The position numbers and the translations under genes were made by a program. A DNA stretch of 64,000 nt from Mustelus asterias (Eukaryota), in the NCBI RefSeq assembly GCF_964213995.1, contig NC_135820.1:496001-560000 (forward strand). Direction: 5' to 3'. Shown piece by piece: positions 3,701 to 57,810 of this stretch. The notes under the pieces are model-generated. The model saw only the letters and a list, made by a program, of their open reading frames with translations, had not been told where the DNA came from and made no database searches. How positions within the stretch are numbered: the first letter of the stretch is position 1; the number at the start of each line of letters is the position of its first letter.

Positions 3701-4178
3701 CCACCTCTTTTGGCCCCTCCTCTGTCTCGTCTAAAACACTTGTACCCCGGAATATTCAGTTGCCAGTCCTGTCCCTCTTTCAACCAAGTCTCTGTCAGCG
3801 CAACCACATCCAAGTTCCTCGTAAGCATTAAGGCCCTGAGTTCGTCTGTCTTACCTGCTACGCTCCTTGCATTGAAGTAGATGCACTCCAGACCTCCAGA
3901 CCCAGTGAGGTCATCCTCCCCCAGACTGCTCTTCTTCTTTGCCAGTCTTGTCCTGGCCCCAAGCTCGTCCCCAGCCTCTACACTTGTAGACATAATTTTT
4001 TGATCCCCACCCCCCTGCCATATTAGTTTAAACCCACCCGAACTGCACGAGCAAAACTCCCAGCCAAGATATTCGTGCCCTTCCAATTTAGTTGTGACCC
4101 GTCCTTCTTGTACAGGTGCCCTCCTCTCTTGAAAACTTCCCAGTGATCCAGGAATATGAAGCCCTCCCTCCTGGACCA
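756..4178 (-). mobile_element. CR1/HER1 LINE, 5'-truncated (ORF1 C-terminus, APE endonuclease, RT), frameshifted
   Basis: ORFs carry [34 protein letters not shown] and RPHLEYCVQFWSP; ORF1 FLDHW...GTNILAG; GAACAAA-type tail at 756; target duplication GAGTGAAC at 748-755 and 4179-4186. Confidence 0.95.
1471..1743 (-). mobile_element. Short 3' fragment of young CR1 family B nested inside the preceding CR1
   Basis: AACATAG tail; sequence matches the 3' end of 52035-54981; TSD ATGGTT at 1465-1470 and 1744-1749. Confidence 0.9.
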
Positions 4179-4559
4179 GAGTGAACCACTCTGGCCGGGG
4201 AGCGGGGAGGGAAGCGGGCCTGGAGACTTCAGTCCCGGGCCCACTAATCTCATTTAAATTATATTCAAATGACCATTTAAATGGTCTTTGTGTCTCCCCC
4301 TGATTTCCGGTGTGGAGAGGATGCTGCCAGAAATCCGGCACTGGGAGATGCTGGCAGGGCATGAACCCCATGAATCACCCACCGCAGGATTCTCCCGGCC
4401 TGTTGTGGGAAAACATTAGTGCAGCAGATGGCAGAATCGCCCCCAGTAACTTTAAGACAGAGCCTGGAAGGATGCAGAATCAGTCCCTATGTCTGATTGG
4501 ATAGACTCAGAATGAAACCAATGTTGGGTCTTAAACCTCATGATCCTGGAACAGGCGCA

Positions 4560-10805: not shown

Positions 10806-10853
10806 GAGAAATAATTAATGAAGTCTCACAATAATATATTTATTTGCTTTTAG

Positions 10854-11135
10854 ATGCATCACAGAATCTCCCAATTGCTTCTCCTGATGTGATTAATGCT
10901 TCATGGATCAATATATCTGAGGGGAATTCGACGGTGATAATCTGCTCTGTCGAGAGCTTCCCAGCTTCTAACCTGACCTGGAGACAGCTTAATGTCACAA
11001 TGAACAGAACATGTTCCAACAATGAGCTGTGGTTGGTGATTCCTCACGTTACATCCAGGGACACTGGAGACTATCAGTGTGTGGCAGAGAATGAACATGG
11101 AGCAGTGGAGGGGTCCATCACCATCACTGTGGAAC
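10854..11135 (+). CDS. Siglec/MAG-like C2-set Ig exon (membrane-proximal), plus-strand paralog
   Basis: Acceptor TTTTAG|AT, donor C|GTGAG, 282 bp, phase 1-1; C-SVESFPASNLTW...DTGDYQCVAENEHG; homologous to 45935-46216. Confidence 0.85.
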
Positions 11136-11699
11136 GTGAGTGTACATAGATTTCAACATCACAAATGCACGTGTGCACACATGCAGACACACACATACAC
11201 ACACGCACACAAATCGATAATTTGTCTGTGATACCTCCTTAGGTGACACTGTGACAGAATGGAGGGAAAATTGCCACCAATTTATGCACAGCAAGATCCC
11301 AAACAACCATGTGATAGTGATTTGACAATCGATCATTTAGTGAGTTGGGTTGATCCATATGTAGAGATTACATGTATAAGGTGGGTGACTAATTACTCTC
11401 TTGGGAAGGATTCCTGCTAATTGTGTACGTGACTCCAGTCTCAAACACCAACTTGTCTGTGGGATTCTATGGTGACTTTTTTTGGGGAGGAAACCTGCCA
11501 AGTCTGGGTGAACAGACGACTCCAGCCTCAAACATCAATGTGGTTAACTCTTAACTGCCCTCTGAGCCAGTTTGTATGAAGTCAGTGGTTCAGGAGGAAG
11601 ACACTCTCCACCATCTCGAGGCAAAACTAGGGATGGATAATAAATACTGACATTGCCCGAGAATGAGTATTTAAAAATTGAGTGACTGTATTACTTCGA

Positions 11700-30270: not shown

Positions 30271-31028
30271 TGGGCATCAAACAACTGAATGTGTTCAAAG
30301 AACAAACAGCCTAAAGCTTAATCAAAGAGGAGGTCGTCCCAAGGGGCCTCTTAAAGGAGGAGGGAAGAGAGAAAGGTTCAGGATGTAAAGGTTTTCCTTG
30401 AGGAGAGGATCGATGAAAGTTGATCTGAAAGAGAGAGGGATGACACGCAAAGAGAAAGAGAGTGCCTTTAACAATATCGGCTGACTTGGAAACCAGGAGG
30501 CGAAGTTGTGCAGTCAACAGTTTACTGGGAAAAGGGTGGAGGGAACAGGAGTTGGCCCTCATGGACAAGCTGTGTTCAGAGAGCGAATGGAGTTGGCCCT
30601 CATGGACAAGCTGTGTTCAGAGAGCGAATGAGAGGAGAATGGAGAGAGGTTGTGGAAAGATGAGAGTTCAGGGCTCGGGCCGGGGTGGGATGGGGAGGGG
30701 GAGGTTTGGCCCAGTGGGCTCGTGAATGGGATTGAATTTGTCCGTTCTGTCCTGGTGGATCATCGATCAATACCAAAAGACATTTCCAATCAGAATGGAG
30801 AGAAGGAGTTTTCCAGCAGTGAGGAACAACCTGAAGGAGGAGGGACAAACTGAAAGACAGAGAATCATCTCAGAGAGATCATTTCAAAGATATCAGATTA
30901 TAACAAGAGCTTTAAAGCTGGTTCATGGGACTGAGACCCTGTGGATTTTTGGAAAGTAAATGGGAGTTTTGAATGATTCTCACGCTCTGTGTTCTCCCCA
31001 CACTGCGGGTGTCTCTTTCTCGCTCAGT

Positions 31029-31145
31029 TTATACATTCCCATAAATAGCATCCTCAGAAAAGTCACAGTTTGCATAAAGATCATCTTCTGGGTCAGGACT
31101 GAGGCTGTGTTTAGATTCCATTTCCAGAACCTTCCCATCTTTCTT
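31029..31145 (-). CDS. Siglec-like gene, exon 9 (terminal cytoplasmic): KKDGKVLEMESKHSLSPDPEDDLYANCDFSEDAIYGNV*
   Basis: Acceptor TATTACAG|, phase 0, TAA at 31031-31029; Tyr motifs LYANC and IYGNV. Confidence 0.8.
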   Translation of the reverse strand, partial: KKDGKVLEMESKHSLSPDPEDDLYANCDFSEDAIYGNV

Positions 31146-31239
31146 CTGTAATAGAAACAGAAATGATCAGAGAGATAATCAGAGTGATCTGTGTTTAGTA
31201 TAATTGATCCAAATTGAAACTTCCACCCACACGAGACAT

Positions 31240-32545
31240 TAATTATTGATTCTGAACAGAGTTTGATTATTGATACTGAATGGAGTTTGATTATTGCTAC
31301 TGAACGGGGTTTGAGTATTGACACTGAACGGGGTTTGATTATTACTACTGAACTGAGTTTGATTATTGATACTGAATGGGGTTTGGTTATTGACACTGAA
31401 CGGTGTTTGCTTACTGATACTGAACGGAGTTTGATTATTGCGACTGAACGGGGTTTGATTATTGACACTGAACGGAGTTTGATTATTGATACTGAACAGA
31501 GTTTGATTATTGCTACTGAACGGGGTTTGGTTATTGACACTTAACGGTGTTTGATTATTGATACTGAACCGGGTTTGATTATTGATACTGAACGGGGTTT
31601 GATTATTGACACTGAACGGGGTTTGATTATTGATACTGAACGGGGTTTCATTATTGACACTGAACGATGTTTGATTATTGACACTGAACGGGGTTTGATT
31701 GTTGACACTGAACGGGGTTTGATTATTGATATTGAACGGTGTTTGATTATTGATACTGAATGGGGTTTGATTATTGATACTGATCGGGGTTTGATTATAG
31801 ATACTGAACGGGGTTTGATTATTGACACTAAACAGTATTTGATTATTGCTACTGAACGGTGTTTGATTATTGCTACTGAATGGGGTTTGATTATTGATAT
31901 TGATCGGGGTTTGATTATTGCTACTGAACGGGGTTTGATTATTGATACTGAACGGTGTTTGATTATTGACACTGAACGGGCTTTGATTATTGACACTGAA
32001 CGCTGTTTGATTATTGACACTGAACGGGGTTTGATTATCGATACGAATCGGGGTTTGATTATCGATACGAAACGGGGTTTGATTATTGATACTGAATGGG
32101 GTTTGATTATTGATACTGAACGGGGTTTGATTATTGATACTGAATGGGGTTTGATTATTGATACTGAATGGGGTTTGATTATTAATACTGAACGATGTTT
32201 GATTATTGATACTGAACGGGGTTTGATTATTAATACTGAACGGGGTTTGATTATTGACACTGAATGGGGTTTGATTATCGATACGAAACGGAGTTTGATT
32301 ATCGATACTGAACGGGGTTTGATTATCGATACGAAACAGGGTTTGATTATTGCTACTGAACGGTGTTTGATTATTGCTACTGAACGGTGCTTGATTATTG
32401 ATACTGAACGGGGTTTGATTATTGATACGAAACGGGGTTTGATTATTGATATTGAACAGGGATTGATTATTGATATTGAACGGGGTTTGATTATTAATAC
32501 TGAATGGGGTTTGATTATCGATATGAAACGTGGTTTGATTTGATA
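31240..32545. repeat. 24-bp minisatellite (TTTGATTATTGATACTGAACGGGG), ~54 copies
   Basis: Direct tandem units; yields the spurious ORF (LIIDTERG)n. Confidence 0.97.
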
Positions 32546-32553
32546 ATTAATAC

Positions 32554-32652
32554 CGAATATTTGGCAGCCTCGAAGATTTCATAAAGATTCTCATCTGAAT
32601 CAGGACTGAGGCCGTGTTTAGATTCCATTTCCAGAACCTTCCCATCATTCTT
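32554..32652 (-). CDS. Siglec-like gene, exon 8 (duplicated cytoplasmic): KNDGKVLEMESKHGLSPDSDENLYEIFEAAKYS
   Basis: Acceptor region nearly identical to that of exon 9; 99 bp, phase 0-0; weak donor TCG|GTATTA. Confidence 0.6.
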
Positions 32653-32747
32653 CTGTAATAGAAACAGAAATGATCAGAGAAATAATCAGAGTGATCTGTG
32701 TTTAGTATAATTAATCCAAATTGAAACTTCCACCCACACGAGACGTT

Positions 32748-33260
32748 AATTATTGACACTGAACGGAGTTTGATTATTGACACTGAACGGGGTTTGATTA
32801 TTGACACTGAATGGGGTTTGATTATTGACACTGAACGGGGTTTGATTATTGATACTGAACAGGGTTTGATTATTGATACTGAACAGGGTTTGATTATTGA
32901 CACTGAACAGGGTTTGATTATTGACACTGAACGGGTTTTGATTATTGACACTGAACGGGGTTTGATTATTGATACTGAACGGGGTTTGATTATTGATACT
33001 GAACGGGGTTTGATTATTGATACTGAACGGGTTTTGATTATTGATACTGAACGGGGTTTGATTGTTGACACTGAATGGGGTTTGATTATTGATACTGAAC
33101 GGGGTTTGATTATTGATACTGAATGGGGTTTGATTATTGATACTGAACGGGGTTTGATTATTGACACTGAACGGAGTTTGATTATTGACACTGAACGGAG
33201 TTTGATGATTGATACTGAACGGGGTTTGATTATTGATACTGACTGGAGTTTAATTATTCA
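32748..33260. repeat. 24-bp minisatellite, ~21 copies
   Basis: Same unit as 31240-32545. Confidence 0.97.
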
Positions 33261-33676
33261 CACTGTGCCTTTGAGAAATGTATTTGTAGCATGTTTGTTG
33301 TGAAGGGACTGTTTTATTTTTCAGCCCTGATTACGGCGCTGACTGTTTCCGACCGGCAACCCACGTGCTGAGCATGCAGAAGGATAATCGCTCCGAGTTA
33401 TTGGAGTGTTTGTTTTAATTTGGGTGAATGCAGTTTTGTTACTTTTTGGGGTTGTTCTTTGGGGTTTCATAGTGGGGTTTAATTAGCCTGCCTGACAAGA
33501 AGAGATAGTCATATGAGTGGGCGGAGATAGGCTTCCAGAGAGCAGGCAGTTGGTGTTTGAATTTAAGCGGAGCAGCAACTCTTTTTCTCTCTCCTCTTTT
33601 TGGAAATTGAAGTCTGAGACCTGCTGGAAAATATGTATCAGTGGGAGGTTACTTAGGAGTAAGTAAAACTCAGATG

Positions 33677-34623
33677 GGGCAATTTTACCTTTTTTTATTC
33701 TAAGTGCTGGGCGGACCTGAAACTGGGCGAGTTTCAGATCTGTCTTCTGGGCATGTTCTCAGGCCCCCCTCCCCCCCATATGTACTCTGCCTGCAAAAAT
33801 ATCAGCAAGCCTGTTGCTCACTGCAGAAGCCTGTGGGCGGAGCTTAACACACGTGAAAGCATGTAGAGGGAGGTAGTGCTCATGTGCAGGCCTCTGATGC
33901 TGCACATGCGCAATAGCAGTAACAGGGGTTTGACAGACAAAGAGAGCTGTCAGGCCCCTGCTCGTGCAGGCGGCCTGAAGCAGTCCCCCCTGCAATCACG
34001 GTGGCCCAAGATAAAGCCCCTGCCAACCCCCCAACCCCAGCAATCGTGGACCTGCTGCCCTCCCCCCACCGATCGCTGCAGAGTGGCAGCGGACCCCTCT
34101 CCCCCCCTCCCCCCACCGATTCCTGCAAAATGGCAGCGGGCTCCTGCCCCCCATTAGTCCTGCCCCCTGGCACTGCCCAGTGGGCATTGTCCAGGTGCCC
34201 GGTGGGCATTGCTCAGGTGCCAGGGTGACACTGCCAAATTGGCACTGCCCAAGGGGTACTCCCCTTGGCCTCCCCGGGGGGCCTCAATGGTCTCCGGTTC
34301 AACCGGCGAGGCCAAGTCTGACTGCTCTCTGTTCATGGGGAGCATGTCTATTCCTCTCCGGCGTGAACCTTGCCCGGCGAGGTCACAAAGGGGGGGGCGG
34401 GCCCGGACAATTGAACGCTAGGCTCACGAAGCAGATGTCAAATAGCATTATCATAAATCTCTGTATATTAACCTGCCTCCTGCCCATTTCCAGCGAGAGG
34501 CTGACCGTGCCGGAAATCCGGCACTCGCGAAAACTGGTGCCAATCATGCAAAGTGCTTGACGCCCAACTTTACCACTGCGTCGTGCCCGAAAACTGGTGC
34601 AACGCGATGGTAAAACCATCCCC
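33677..34623 (+). mobile_element. GC-rich MITE-like element
   Basis: Imperfect TIRs GGGGCAATTTTACC / GGTAAAACCATCCCC; poly-C tracts and GGCACTGCC motifs shared with 190-750. Confidence 0.6.
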
Positions 34624-34656
34624 AGAGTGTGTCATGTGAATATGCTCAAACAGTAT

Positions 34657-34825
34657 AAAGCAAATTACATCGGTTGCTGGAATCTGAAACCAAAAGAGAA
34701 AATTCTGGAAAATCTCAGCAGGTCTGGCAGCATTTGTAAGGAGAGAAAGAGCTGACGTTTTGAGTCCAGATGACCTTTTGTCTGTCATGTGGACTCGAAA
34801 CGTCGTACTTTTCTCTCCTTACAGA
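34657..34825. mobile_element. Penelope-like terminal fragment with fold-back
   Basis: GCTGGAATCTGAAAC..CTGGAAAATCTCAGCAGGTCTGGCAGCA; internal inverted repeat; flanked by ATGCTCAAAC(A/G)GTAT duplication at 34642 and 34825. Confidence 0.6.
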
Positions 34826-35157
34826 TGCTCAAACGGTATTTTGATAGGGATAAAAAGCAGAAGAAGGATGTGTTGGTGGTTACAATGCAGAGTGAAAAAG
34901 AACTAGATTATTCTGAAACTGACATTCCTCAAATTGGATTGGACAATGAGGAAGTAATCAAATATTGGGATTTACATACTGAGTTACTTTCAGAAAAAAA
35001 TCAAAATGAACTGAAAGAGTTATTACATTCACATGGAGATATATGTGGGAATGTACTGGGAAAAACTAAAATAAGTGTGCTTGATGTAGAAAATGCTGTT
35101 CCAGTTGAGCAATATTTGTCCAGACTTAATCCACTGAAGCTGTCACAGGTTCAGAAG

Positions 35158-35510
35158 GAAAAGCTGACATTTGCTTGGCCTGAGATGCAGCAGTTGAAAG
35201 TCTCAATCAAACACTACGAAGGGCTGGTGGATAGTTACAAATCTCAGTTAATGAAGACTCGAATGGAGGCAGATGAGTGCAATGTAAAACTGGTGAAGGC
35301 AAAAGAGGAGAATCAGTTAGTGGACAATGATTGATTAAGGAAAGTGAGCCGGAGCGGAGACAAATGCAAGAAAAGTTGACTGATTTGGAAGCTGTTCCTG
35401 AGTTGTTGAACGTCAGCTGCAGGACTGTTAAAAACAACTCATCATCGAGGAGAGGAAAAATGTCGATGAATGAACAGTTATGTGTGATCGCAAAATGGAG
35501 ATTGAGGAGT
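35158..35510 (+). pseudogene. ODF2: ODF2/cenexin-like intronless coding fragment with stops and frameshifts
   Basis: EMQQLKVSIKHYEGLVDSYKSQLMKTRMEADE...KEEN; KESEPERRQMQEKLTDLEAVPELL; QLQDC*KQL..EERKNVD resemble the ODF2 coiled coil as recalled (QQLKASVKNYEGMIDNYKSQVMKTRLEADE...ERKNID). Confidence 0.75.
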
Positions 35511-36156
35511 ATTTTACGACTGCAGGCGAAAGTAAAGGACAACGACGTGAGGTGAGACAGTTTGATGAAACAGTACCATCGTTTGAAATGAACTGCTGGA
35601 ATAATGAATCGATACAGCTTGTACAGATGTGAATACCAAGAGAAGCAGTACTGTTCATAGCTGGTGTTCGAGTAAATTATGATGGTTTTTGCAGCAGCAT
35701 AATTGTCACGGTGATCGTTGGAACCATAATTACAATGAATTTTGACACCAAAGAAGACAATCTGCTATGTATCATTGCAAAGAATATGCAGAAAATGATA
35801 ATGAAGATCCTGAACAATTGAAGAAATTGGTAAAGTAGCTTTGAACAGAAAGATTGGAGATGCGGGAAAGACTGTTGAGACACCATTTCACAACAGAATG
35901 TGGAGTTGGACTGCCTGACAGAGGAATCTGTGAAAATCAAAAGAACTGTTTCGACTGAGCAAAGGAAATTAAAAAGCAAATCCAAAGTAGTTTGTGCAAG
36001 TTTGCATCCAATGTAAAGCTTTCTTGTTCATACTTCAGCTCTGATTATGGTGCCAATTGTCTATGACCAGCAGTCCACATGTTAAGAATGTAGATGAATA
36101 ATTGCTCCTAATTATTGGGGTGTTTGTTTTAATCTGAGTTAATGCAGTTTTGTTAT

Positions 36157-36505
36157 CATAGAATCATAGAATCATAGAAACCCTACAGTGCAGAAGGAGG
36201 CCATTCGGCCCATCGAGTCTGCACCGACCACAATCCCACCCAGGCCCTACCCCCACATATTTTACCCACTAATCCCTCTAACCTACGCATCCCAGGACTC
36301 TAAGGGGCAATTTTTTTAACCTGGCCAATCAACCTAACCCGCACATCTTTGGACTGTGGGAGGAAACCGGAGCACCCGGAGGAAACCCACGCAGACACGA
36401 GGAGAATGTGCAAACTCCACACAGACAGTGACCCGAGCCGGGAATCAAACCTGGGACCCTGGAGCTGTGAAGCAGCAGTGCTAACCACTGTGCTACCGTG
36501 CCGCC
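36157..36505 (-). mobile_element. HE1 V-SINE, full length
   Basis: (ATCATAGA)n tail, V-domain and GGGGCGGCACGGTAGCACAGTGG head on the minus strand. Confidence 0.95.
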
Positions 36506-37296
36506 CCTTTGGGTTGTCCCCTGGGGTTTCAGAGTAGGGTCTCTCAGACAAGAAGAGAGACTCATGAATGGGCGGAGCGAGGTTTACAGAGAGACAAACA
36601 GGCAGTTGCTCTTTGAATTTGGATATTTTTTCTCTCTCCCTCTCTTTCTGGAAATTGAAGTCTGGGACCTGCTACAAAATATGTATCCTTCTCCAGAGGT
36701 CTGCAAAAGGCAAGAAGTGTTTTCTCCCTCTTTCTTTTTTTGGAATTCTGCTGTTTGTGAAGACAGGTCTTTCTCTGAAGGCCACTGTCTGAGAGTCAGA
36801 AGACGGGTGTCTCTCTGTATCTCTGTCTAGACGTTATAGAAGGTTGGAGGCCTAGCAGGCCACATAAGACTCTGTTTTTGCTCACTTATTCTGAAGAGGC
36901 ATTTATGTCTATGGGAAATATTGCATAAATTGGAGGGATTCTGGGGGAAAGGTACTGAAGAAAGGTGGCAGTTTTTCAAGGAATGTCTGTCTAGAGTTCT
37001 ACAGGACAACGTTCCGAGCAGACAGGGAGCTGTCGGTCGGTTAAAGGAACCGTGGTGCACGAAAGCTGTGCGGGACCGAGTCGAGAAGAAAAGGCAAGCG
37101 TACAAAAGGCTCAGAGAGCTTGGCGAAGATAGGGATTTAGAAGAGTATACGGCTTGTCGGAAGGGACTAAAGAAGGAAATTAGGAGAGCCAGAAGGGGTC
37201 ACGAGAAGGCCCTGGCAGGTAGGATTAAGGAGAACCCTAAGGCGTTCTATAAATATGTGAAGAGTAAAAGGATGAGACGTGACGGAATAGGGCCTA

Positions 37297-42874: not shown

Positions 42875-42982
42875 CTTCTGATGACTCAAGGACCTATCAA
42901 ACACACAATTTTCATAAGTAGGACCTTGATATTCATTGATTATACGGTTCAATTTCATCTCCCATTTTGAATCTCCTCTCTT
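42875..42982 (-). CDS. Siglec-like gene, exon 7 (cytoplasmic): KRGDSKWEMKLNRIINEYQGPTYENCVFDRSLSHQK
   Basis: TATTACAG| acceptor, AAG|GTGAGT donor, 108 bp, phase 0-0; homologous to exons 8 and 9; TYENC motif. Confidence 0.75.
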
Positions 42983-45850: not shown

Positions 45851-45934
45851 TTGACATTAAATGTCAAAATTGCCAGAAATACACACATCTCCTGAAACAG
45901 TAGAAACAAAATGTTGATGTTTTTGTACACTCAC

Positions 45935-46216
45935 TTTCCACAGTAATGGCTATGGACCTCTCCAATCCTCCATGTTCATTCTCTGCTACACACTGATAGA
46001 CTCCACTGTCCCTGGATGTAACGTGAGGAATCACCAACCGCAGCTCATTGTTGGATCTTGTGCTGTTTATTGGGACATCAAGATGTCTCCAGGTCAGGTT
46101 AGAAGCTGGGAAGCTCTCGACAGAGCAGATTATCACTGCCGAATTCCCCTCAGTTATATTGAGCCATGAAGCATTAATCATATCAAGAGAAGTGATTGAG
46201 AGATTTCGTGGCGCAT
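45935..46216 (-). CDS. Siglec-like gene, exon 4 (C2-set Ig)
   Basis: YAPRNLSI...ICSVESFPASNLTW...DSGVYQCVAENEHG; 282 bp, phase 1-1, AG/GT ends. Confidence 0.92.
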
Positions 46217-46359
46217 CTAAAAACCAACATCGATCTTGAGTATTACTGAAAAAGACATATGCTCCTGAACCTTTTCATCTTGGACTTTTCAGGATACTTC
46301 ACATGAATACTAATATATAAAAGGAACAATAATTTACACTGCACGAGAAGAGTGTTGAT

Positions 46360-55315: not shown

Positions 55316-56179
55316 AGCAGTATGCCGCAGGGATTGGTGCTGGGTCCACTGTTGTTTGTCATTTATATAATCGATTTGGATGAGAATATGGGAGGCATGG
55401 TTAGTAAGTTTGCAGATGACACCAAAATTGATGGTGTAGTGGACAGTGAAGAAGGTTTCCTCAGACTACAACAGGATCTTGAGCAACTGGGTCAGTGGGC
55501 TGAGGAATGGCAGATGGAGTTTAATTCAGATAAATGCGAGGTGTTGCATTTTGGTAAAACAAATTAGGGCAGGACTTGCACAGTCAATGGTAGGACCCTG
55601 GGGAGTGTTGTTGAACAGAGAGACTGAGGGGTGAAGGTACATAGTTCTTCGAAAGTGGTGTCACAGGTAGACTGGGTGGTGAAGAAGGCATTTTGCACAC
55701 TTGCCTTCATCAGTGAGAGCACTGAGTACAGGAGTTGTGAAGTTATGTTACAACTGTACAAGACATTGGTAAAGCCACATTTGGAGTAAAGAACAAAGAA
55801 CAAAGAAAATTACAGCATGGGAACAGACCCTTCGGCCCTCCACGCCTGCACAAAACATACTGCCGGACTTAACTAAAACCCTGTACCCTTCCGTGGACCA
55901 TATCCTTCTATTCCCATCCTACAAAAACAAAGAAAAGGAAAGAACAAAGACTGCGTACAATTCTAGTTGCCCTGCTATCGGAAGGTTGTTTAATCATTGA
56001 CATTAAAATGAGTATTAGAGGTTGCTTTCGGACTGAACTGGAAGTTATCACCAGGTTATTGATAATCAGACACTGCGTTATAATAAGCTGTGTTTTGTTT
56101 TAATTTGTAAACCTCATCATCTGGGTTATTTTCCATCGAGTGTTGAATGTGAATTGTTGAGTAATAACACAGAACTTAC

Positions 56180-56542
56180 CAAAAACATGAATCTGGGTTA
56201 CAGGATAGTTATGGTTTGGACCCTTGTGAAATTCTACTCTGAAAAAATAAGGTCCTGCATCTTCCCGTCTGACGTTGTTTATAATCAGGGAACAGTTGCC
56301 ATCTTTCAGGTTTCCAGACAGCCGGGTCCGATGGCGGAATTGTACTGCCTCAAAAATATGATTCCTGGAGTGAAAGGCTATAGACGATACATCCAATGTC
56401 TTGCTATTAAACCAGACTCCACCCCGCGGTTGGTTTGCCAAGTGTGATGGATAACTGTAATGACATGGAATCTGTACACATGAACCTTCGAAAGCTGTCA
56501 CCTCTCGTGGTGTATCGCCTTTCCAATCCTGTGATAACCCAA
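56180..56542 (-). CDS. Siglec-like gene, exon 2 (V-set sialic-acid-binding domain)
   Basis: W..TPREVTAFEGSCVQIPC...W...RTRLSGNLKDGNCSLIINNVRREDAGPYFFRVE: Siglec SCVxIPC, GNCSL and YFFR (essential Arg) signatures; 363 bp, phase 1-1. Confidence 0.95.
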
Positions 56543-57810
56543 CTGGGGAGAGAAATATAAACATTTAACACTGCATTGTTTGTAGATCCACGAAAGTCAA
56601 TATTCACCCCCTCTGTCACTGAGCACAGTGGCTTCAGTGTGGACCATCTACAGGACACACAAGGAACTCCCCAAGGTTTCACAATGGATGGAAGAGAATC
56701 CTGGACACAGGAGTGGACAAGTTCATTCTACATTGACCCATGGTCTTCAGGACCCTGTTTAATGAAGCCAATCTTCCACCCAACACAATGTCTACAAGAC
56801 GCACCAATGGAGATACATTCAGTGCTGATTGACAAGGCAGGACAATGGATGAGGAGCCGTCAGAACTCCCATCATCATAACCATCACGAATCACTGATTA
56901 GCCTCACCTCCCTGCAAGATCTTCAAAAAGCAGATTGAATCAGATTAGTGAGTTTAGTTTTTTAGAGGATGAGGCTTTGCTGGCTGGGCCAAAATTTATT
57001 GCCTTACCATAAGAATGTCCTTGTGAGCCACCTCATTGTCTAAAGGATTATTTCTGATCCAAACACCCCCATTGTTGTAGCACTGATTCCGATGCAGCAT
57101 TGTAGGCTGATTTGTTCCCAAGCTCAGCGCTGACCCGACTCCAGCAGATACTGAAACACATGGGCAAAGTGCCTCTAGCCTGAGCTCTGGCTGTGTTGAG
57201 AGCAAAGACATATATGCAAACTGAATATTTGACACCTTCAAACACAGCTTTGCTTCTCTATTTCAGTTATCTTGCACCTTTATCAAAGTTTCTAGCATGC
57301 TGAGAGTGGACAGGAAGTGTGATGCTGAACAGTCTGTCTATTCTCGGAGCTGCTGTGTTGTCAAATGGGAAATTCTGACAACAATGAGCGGAACACACAT
57401 TTCTGGACATTCCTATCAGAGTCTGAGCATCAGGATAGACTTGAACACTCCATTTGTATCCATTCATCTCATCTCAACCCATTGGCTCTATCACTCTATC
57501 ATAGATCACCTCCTAGTTCAGCTAGCCTCCATTTTAAGATCCTCATCCTTGATTGGCAATTTGTCCATTACCCCCCAACTCCACTGTCTATCTCTAACCT
57601 CCTCCAGCCCTGCAACCCTCAGATCTCTGCTCTCCTCTAACTCTGCTGTCGGACGGGGAGTCAGTGAGCACAGAGTGATGGGCGAATGGGACTTGGTGTG
57701 AGTTTGTACACTGGGTCACTGCTGAATTGGTTTCCAATCAGAGCTCAATAAGAATGGTCTTTTACAAAGACTATTGACTATAAATCTGTCCGAGCTGACG
57801 CTGATATTAC

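Follow-up and report, generated by a model that had tools for sequence, protein, structure and literature searches.

How does a spliced piece of a host gene come to lie inside an LTR retrotransposon, and from what kind of template was it copied? The question arose at a locus of the shark Mustelus asterias, in a stretch of 64,000 nucleotides (contig NC_135820.1, positions 496,001 to 560,000 of the forward strand; hereafter the window). A sequence-only reading had described there a Gypsy pol remnant that continues in frame into codons resembling ODF2, and had explained it by a template switch onto a testis-abundant mRNA. Abundance in testis would fit both ODF2 and MEIOB, a second gene found in the same cargo. 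Our results support capture of host RNA by template switching, since the cargo crosses exon junctions, its ends show microhomologies, a parent form carries reverse transcriptase (RT) at the same place and there is no poly(A) at the cargo ends. However, three genes were captured and not one, and a linear mRNA is probably the wrong template, because in ODF2 the donor site of exon 16 is joined to the acceptor site of the earlier exon 10.

The window copy and its surroundings

The locus holds a degraded member of a multicopy Gypsy LTR family, Gmr1-like and non-autonomous. Its parts are as follows (MEIOB and EPB41L3 exons, labelled M and B, are numbered by us within the mapped part of each gene).

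33262..33640, + strand: 5' LTR remnant lacking its first bases and its 3' half; 74% to the 3' LTR, matches the LTRs of copies L047, L049, L050 and L176
34623..34651, + strand: integrase C-terminal remnant (CHVNMLK); 91% to L049/L053, where it ends an Integrase_p58_C match
34652..34824, no strand: later insertion with inverted ends and duplicated 10-mer flanks; missing in other copies, self-inverted match
34825..35151, + strand: linker between integrase and RT plus the first RT residues, from the parent element; common to cargo-free relatives that continue into RVT_1
35150..35508, + strand: spliced ODF2 exons 13 (from nt ~21), 14 and 15 with the beginning of 16; 80% to the host CDS, three junctions crossed
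35508..35836, + strand: MEIOB exons M6 (from nt ~10), M7, M8 and M9, spliced; 80% to host exons, G000:C23
35837..35853, + strand: MEIOB exon M3 start, with back-splice-type junction M9/M3 at 35836/35837; 15/20 letters, shift 0 (L001)
35854..35870, + strand: ODF2 exon 16, 3' end; 15/19 letters
35871..35927, + strand: ODF2 exon 10 start, with back-splice-type junction E16/E10 at 35870/35871; by exon comparison
35928..36030, + strand: EPB41L3 exons B4 (end), B5 and B6 (part), spliced; 84% to host exons, G000:C7
36027..36940, + strand: 3' LTR remnant, interrupted at 36156-36507 by a common short repeat; by repeat comparison

The two LTR-like repeats proposed around the cargo were confirmed as 33262-33640 and 36027-36155 plus 36508 onward (74% over 333 columns). 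This copy has lost gag, protease and most of integrase, as well as about 170 nt ahead of the EPB41L3 piece and, behind it, the B6/B2 junction, the RNase H end and the polypurine tract; the E16/E10 and M9/M3 junctions are kept. The 10-mer around the later insertion is found at 34642-34651 and 34825-34834. Between the 5' LTR and the integrase remnant lies a GC-rich stretch (33640-34622), parts of which also stand beside copy L008 and which is probably another repeat.

The read-through from pol into ODF2 was borne out by the ORF at 34774-35334, which reads QVQKE/KLTFAW across the joint, and the letters said to be shared at this joint are present in the aligned rows. As a remnant of the parent pol, the ORF holds apart from its initial 50 nt, which derive from the later insertion. 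In a protein search residues 35152-35331 matched shark ODF2 with 78-81% identity (E 1e-18) and ray ODF2 with 66-79% (23 proteins). The ODF2 stretch runs over some 120 codons, close to the 115 or so first estimated, and passes its three host exon junctions without introns, but two deletions, of 1 nt and 10 nt, disrupt the frame and leave just about 60 codons open. The sequence that follows had been taken for coiled coil; it is instead MEIOB with its OB fold, then ODF2 once more with the exon order reversed, and finally EPB41L3 with its FERM domain. A poly(A) tail and target duplication, as for a LINE-made retrocopy, were not found around the cargo, both ends of which pass directly into pol in aligned copies.

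The proposed Siglec intron was also supported: the element lies antisense within an intron of an inferred Siglec/MAG-like gene of the minus strand, exons of which flank it on either side (V-set at 56103-56564; Ig at 45867-46274; tyrosine-motif exons near 42900, 32600 and 31100). A Pfam search of the window ORFs gave nothing useful. The terminal tyrosine-motif exon region (31028-33257) is itself duplicated (31067-31366 vs 32574-32873, 91%); each duplicate adjoins a 24-nt minisatellite, and the tails diverge past the first tyrosine. On the opposite strand an Ig exon at 10835-11146 (+) resembles the one at 45867-46274, which suggests a second, convergent Siglec-like gene.

Host exons and backward junctions across copies

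Host ODF2 was located at G000:C13:4084608-4048314, with 19 coding exons that have GT-AG borders and translate to P0006. One ODF2 isoform labelled Carcharodon (P0004) ends in a lipocalin domain, probably by read-through or annotation fusion with a neighbour gene. The middle cargo piece was identified as MEIOB by protein match (E 1e-20) together with host exons on C23; an atlas search had given OB folds as a lead, and a word-based protein search and a PDB search with this piece found nothing. A fragment of the element, from its EPB41L3 part, lies at G000:C23:21681204-21681566, some 10 kb upstream of where the mapped MEIOB exons begin. The next cargo piece matched FERM_N and band 4.1-like protein 3 in other copies, and its host exons lie on C7, B2 with a start codon. 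We take this gene to be EPB41L3 rather than a paralogue, from its N-terminus and the best PDB match. Donors and acceptors of the host exons are GT and AG.

In long-form copies the cargo is arranged, from 5' to 3', as pol; ODF2 E13 (part)-E14-E15-E16 (start); MEIOB M6 (part)-M7-M8-M9 / M3-M4 (part); ODF2 E16 (end) / E10 (part); EPB41L3 B3 (end)-B4-B5-B6 / B2 (part); and the RNase H end, purine tract and LTR, where the strokes (M9/M3, E16/E10 and B6/B2) mark backward joins. These copies hold the whole of M3 together with part of M4, and the 3' piece of exon 16 measures 47 nt in them. The backward joins were analyzed by anchoring one exon and choosing the adjoining exon among 34 host exons, in 71 cargo-bearing copies from the fetched loci (70 places, as L092 and L148 are one). 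E16 stood before E10 in 37 of 38 anchored copies (33 at shift 0; anchor missing in 33). M3 followed M9 in 34 of 36, or 33 of 35 without the duplicate (33 at shift 0; anchor missing in 35), and B2 followed B6 in 30 of 39, all at shift 0 (anchor missing in 32). The misses are deletions, insertions or weak scores, and the normal neighbours E9, M10 and B7 were best in none of the anchored copies. A laxer probe for the junctions was abandoned in favour of this test, as it gave false positives such as a MEIOB 'junction' in the MEIOB-less copy L089. Exon junctions in reversed order at splice sites were thereby found for all three genes.

The order of the exons would correspond to circles of 899 nt for ODF2 (exons 10-16), 744 nt for MEIOB (M3-M9) and 560 nt for EPB41L3 (B2-B6). 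In all 71 copies the cargo is confined to the exons of these putative circles, apart from a few alignments that overrun a border by 5-12 nt through chance likeness. Each captured piece is shorter than one turn of its circle and covers about 60-71% of it, so that crossing the junction is what would be expected from a circular template.

The joins between templates look different from the backward ones. All five show microhomology of 4-9 nt, as read from aligned rows and with lengths taken without random simulation: 4 exact nt (about 9 with one gap) at pol/ODF2, 8/9 at ODF2/MEIOB, 7 at MEIOB/ODF2, 7/9 at ODF2/EPB41L3 and about 6-7 at EPB41L3/pol. The backward joins share 0-1 nt where this can be read, the end of EPB41L3 exon 1 lying outside the mapped part. 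Concurrently, host ends fall at splice sites in 6/6 cases at backward joins and in 0/8 at between-template joins, which lie 10-93 nt from exon borders (Fisher p 3.3e-4). From these differences in position and microhomology we infer that the backward joins were probably made by the spliceosome and the between-template joins by RT. At the ODF2-to-MEIOB switch both exon starts are in register. The frame is kept at several switches, but since microhomologies between these coding sequences are in frame 37-53% of the time anyway, nothing can be drawn from this.

Parent element, spread and decay

Eight cargo-free relatives (L170-L172, L174-L176, L178 and L184) share both flanks with the cargo copies and have RT-RNase H, about 1140 nt where uninterrupted, in the place of the cargo. 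Integrase lies upstream of RT, with rve followed by RVT_1 in L170, and Integrase_p58_C followed by the RT start in L184 and L169. This is the order described for the Gmr1 clade of Gypsy elements (PMC8220671, in the part available to us), and it is on domain order that the likeness is based; unlike Gmr1 as described there, the cargo derivative has lost RT-RNase H. A SCAN-like gag match in L174 is suggestive of the same affinity. Remnants of gag, protease and integrase are retained in longer cargo copies. L047 has two LTRs and a purine tract, together with a target duplication of 5 bp that was read in this one copy. A primer site was read by eye in L049, where it resembles what we take to be a tRNA-Pro site; a scan with a primer-site pattern gave no match.

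By form the 71 copies comprise 2 without MEIOB and with exon 16 whole, 16 long, 23 short, 6 with further deletions and 24 unassigned. The MEIOB-less form (L089 and L143) is read from its sequence as the earlier state, because it carries ODF2 bases missing from the other copies; a copy with ODF2 only or EPB41L3 only was not found among the 71. A tree of 39 copies and the host was star-like and did not separate the subfamilies, L089 being basal (support 76) and L143 placed inside. L085 (long-form) and L089 carry the same short repeat at nearly the same base, at the end of exon B6, where target preference and shared ancestry would fit alike. One further copy, L177, is a recombinant of parent and cargo in which RT continues about 185 nt further (oriented 4150-4520) before entering the cargo with an 11/12-nt match at the ODF2 exon 14/15 border. 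This secondary switch lies at most 6 nt from an exon junction. Co-packaging of parent and cargo RNAs would be expected to give such re-entry from a longer RT stretch.

The family is large. A 301-nt query over the pol-ODF2 junction gave 443 candidates in the shark's own genome; 40 were scored, and 39 of them were other places, at 78-85%. A 26-nt E16/E10 pattern with up to 3 mismatches was found at 96 places vs 0 for the reversed control. The captures are thus present at no fewer than 96 places, and they were made not at this Siglec intron but long ago in an ancestor of this family. A search of the same genome for copies that carry OFD1, run in strict mode, matched the host gene alone, with 19 exon hits. 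Twenty-three of the 96 are one identical variant, mostly at C15:80.5-84.4 Mb, and are likely segmental duplicates. The same region (L185, L186 and others) holds at least 20 near-identical copies of one insertion, some about 5.15 kb apart, which point to a recently duplicated unit.

LTR pairs differ by a K2P of 0.21-0.27 in four copies, and terminal branches of the tree measure 0.08-0.17. Rates in sharks are slow, and such rates would put the age of the burst on the order of 100 million years. In a comparison of very few sites, five changes found specifically in the present host ODF2 are absent from the copies, which do carry C39; C39 is common to the sampled galeomorph sharks and missing from sawshark and rays. 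Contigs of four other organisms, from four studies, cover at least 80% of the element, and among the matches listed every one of the four spans the MEIOB and EPB41L3 junctions, against three for the ODF2 junction. Selection on the cargo was considered, as raw pairwise dN/dS (0.47-0.75) and a deficit of stops suggested it, but the missense signal was gone when base change and CpG were matched (1797 observed vs 1817 expected, 0.99). Stops numbered 97 vs 123 expected (33 vs 53 in the ODF2 part), and this small deficit may be explained by the choice of copies through protein searches. With missense changes at the neutral expectation, the cargo therefore looks like a passenger in neutral decay, with no sign of purifying selection in the matched test.

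Origin of the captures and relation to known systems

The copies show directly how the cargo is built, with its exact junctions and microhomologies, and they include a parent form and a form without MEIOB. Together these make it very probable that the RT-RNase H of a Gmr1-like Gypsy element was replaced stepwise through template switching onto three circular RNAs, and that the product spread in trans and decayed neutrally. The circular templates and the order of switching are our reconstruction. Three circular RNAs would have been packaged with element RNA in the germline. During minus-strand synthesis RT would leave the element near the RNase H end, copy about 400 nt of the EPB41L3 circle through its back-splice junction, switch to the ODF2 circle for about 540 nt and go back to the element at the RT start. 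In a later round about 510 nt of the MEIOB circle would have replaced some 35 nt within ODF2 exon 16. The resulting RT-less element has kept its LTRs, the primer site and the purine tract; the parent likely mobilised it in trans, and deletion subfamilies would then have arisen before its neutral decay. Several observations weigh against this reading: every capture is shorter than a full turn, single-gene copies were not found among the 71, L143 falls inside the tree, the L177 switch is close to an exon junction, the ODF2-to-MEIOB switch has its exon starts in register, and the target duplication was read in one copy.

Reversed junctions can be reached by other routes. Trans-splicing of two pre-mRNAs of the same gene yields linear transcripts with repeated exons and an identical, exact donor-to-upstream-acceptor junction, and such transcripts could have served as templates. 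They are generally held to be rarer than circles, would be required three times, and not one captured base lies outside the would-be circles in the 71 copies; we consider this route improbable. We give about the same small weight to backward jumps of RT within the introns of pre-mRNA, followed by splicing of the hybrid introns from the element transcript. The junctions would then be exact without any circle, and the element has passed through many rounds, seen as subfamilies. It would, however, need three backward jumps and packaging of nuclear pre-mRNA, and no intron-bearing intermediate occurs among the 71 copies. Apart from common repeats in L143, host intron was absent from the six cargoes tested. 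A search for inverted matches between the present-day flanking introns, the only kind of repeat compared, scored 0 bits for both ODF2 and MEIOB, and 188 bits for EPB41L3; for the first two genes this weighs against circles as well.

Ordinary mRNA could also show the reversed order if blocks of exons had once been duplicated in tandem in the host genes, a route by which such junctions are known to arise. This we find very improbable, as it asks for three independent gains and losses, each tested host exon is at present single-copy within 100, 100 and 200 kb of its locus, and full-length shark ODF2 proteins have the ordinary length of 778-874 aa. Least credible of all is that backward switches on linear mRNA came to rest on exon borders by chance. 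The element does switch templates often, but a random backward jump has a chance of 4-6e-4 per gene to place both ends within 1 nt of borders, and the backward joints have just 0-1 nt of homology.

Each half of this reading has precedents, since LTR-mediated capture and circular-RNA pseudogenes are both published. Dong et al. (2016, PMC4897178) described 33 mouse pseudogenes derived from circRFWD2 that lie beside MMERVK10C-int and carry a non-colinear back-splice junction, and called the mechanism mysterious. The shark family is likewise multicopy, with back-splice junctions and a tie to LTR element sequence. The mouse case involves one gene and an ERV, with no switch points mapped in the paper, whereas the shark family has three genes within one non-ERV Gypsy element, with switch points, parent and intermediate. 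On the other hand, the mouse circle is known from RNA, whereas the shark circles are deduced from genomic DNA. In the parts available to us, Tan et al. (2016, PMC5131818) reported LTR-mediated retrocopies, including a four-gene mouse 'Super' copy in MERVL. There too pieces of host RNA take the place of part of the element ORF, the switches show microsimilarity, and chimeras of several genes as well as secondary rounds occur; the shark cargo shares the replacement of an ORF part between two LTRs and the switch microsimilarity. Those retrocopies are young and low-copy. Neither 'circular' nor 'back-splic' occurs in their text or in the supplementary files searched, and it is by this wording that the cases are set apart here. 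Maize Bs1, in what we could consult of PMC5131818 and PMC5408686, is an LTR element with three transduced cellular genes. It differs in being from a plant and having a hybrid ORF, with no back-splice junction in the description, whereas the shark cargo decays neutrally.

In the open-access literature we found neither an LTR element that combines several back-spliced captures nor a description of the shark family, nor papers on circMEIOB, circEPB41L3 or circODF2. Within that literature, what appears to be new is that three of three captures are back-spliced, with switch points and an intermediate preserved. The route by which circular RNA is reverse transcribed into genomes, which Dong et al. 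left open, would here be laid out in detail, from the parent element through five switches at microhomologies and three exact back-splice junctions to an intermediate that survives. Genomic copies of this kind can mimic back-splice reads.

That three of three captures span a back-splice junction leads to a testable claim, namely that LTR particles favour circles, and this can be checked in any genome by looking for reversed exon order in LTR-borne cargo. The proposal that germline LTR particles take circles as switch templates far above their abundance, as these are stable and endless for RT, is tentative, and we give it slightly less than an even chance: it is based on three events of a single lineage and assumes that circles make up a low share of germline RNAs. 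Old LTR elements would then be a fossil archive of circles, and the three junctions would represent back-splice isoforms of a shark meiotic germline, fixed before several living shark lineages split. The family itself predicts three specific circles in shark gonads, one of them from a meiosis gene.
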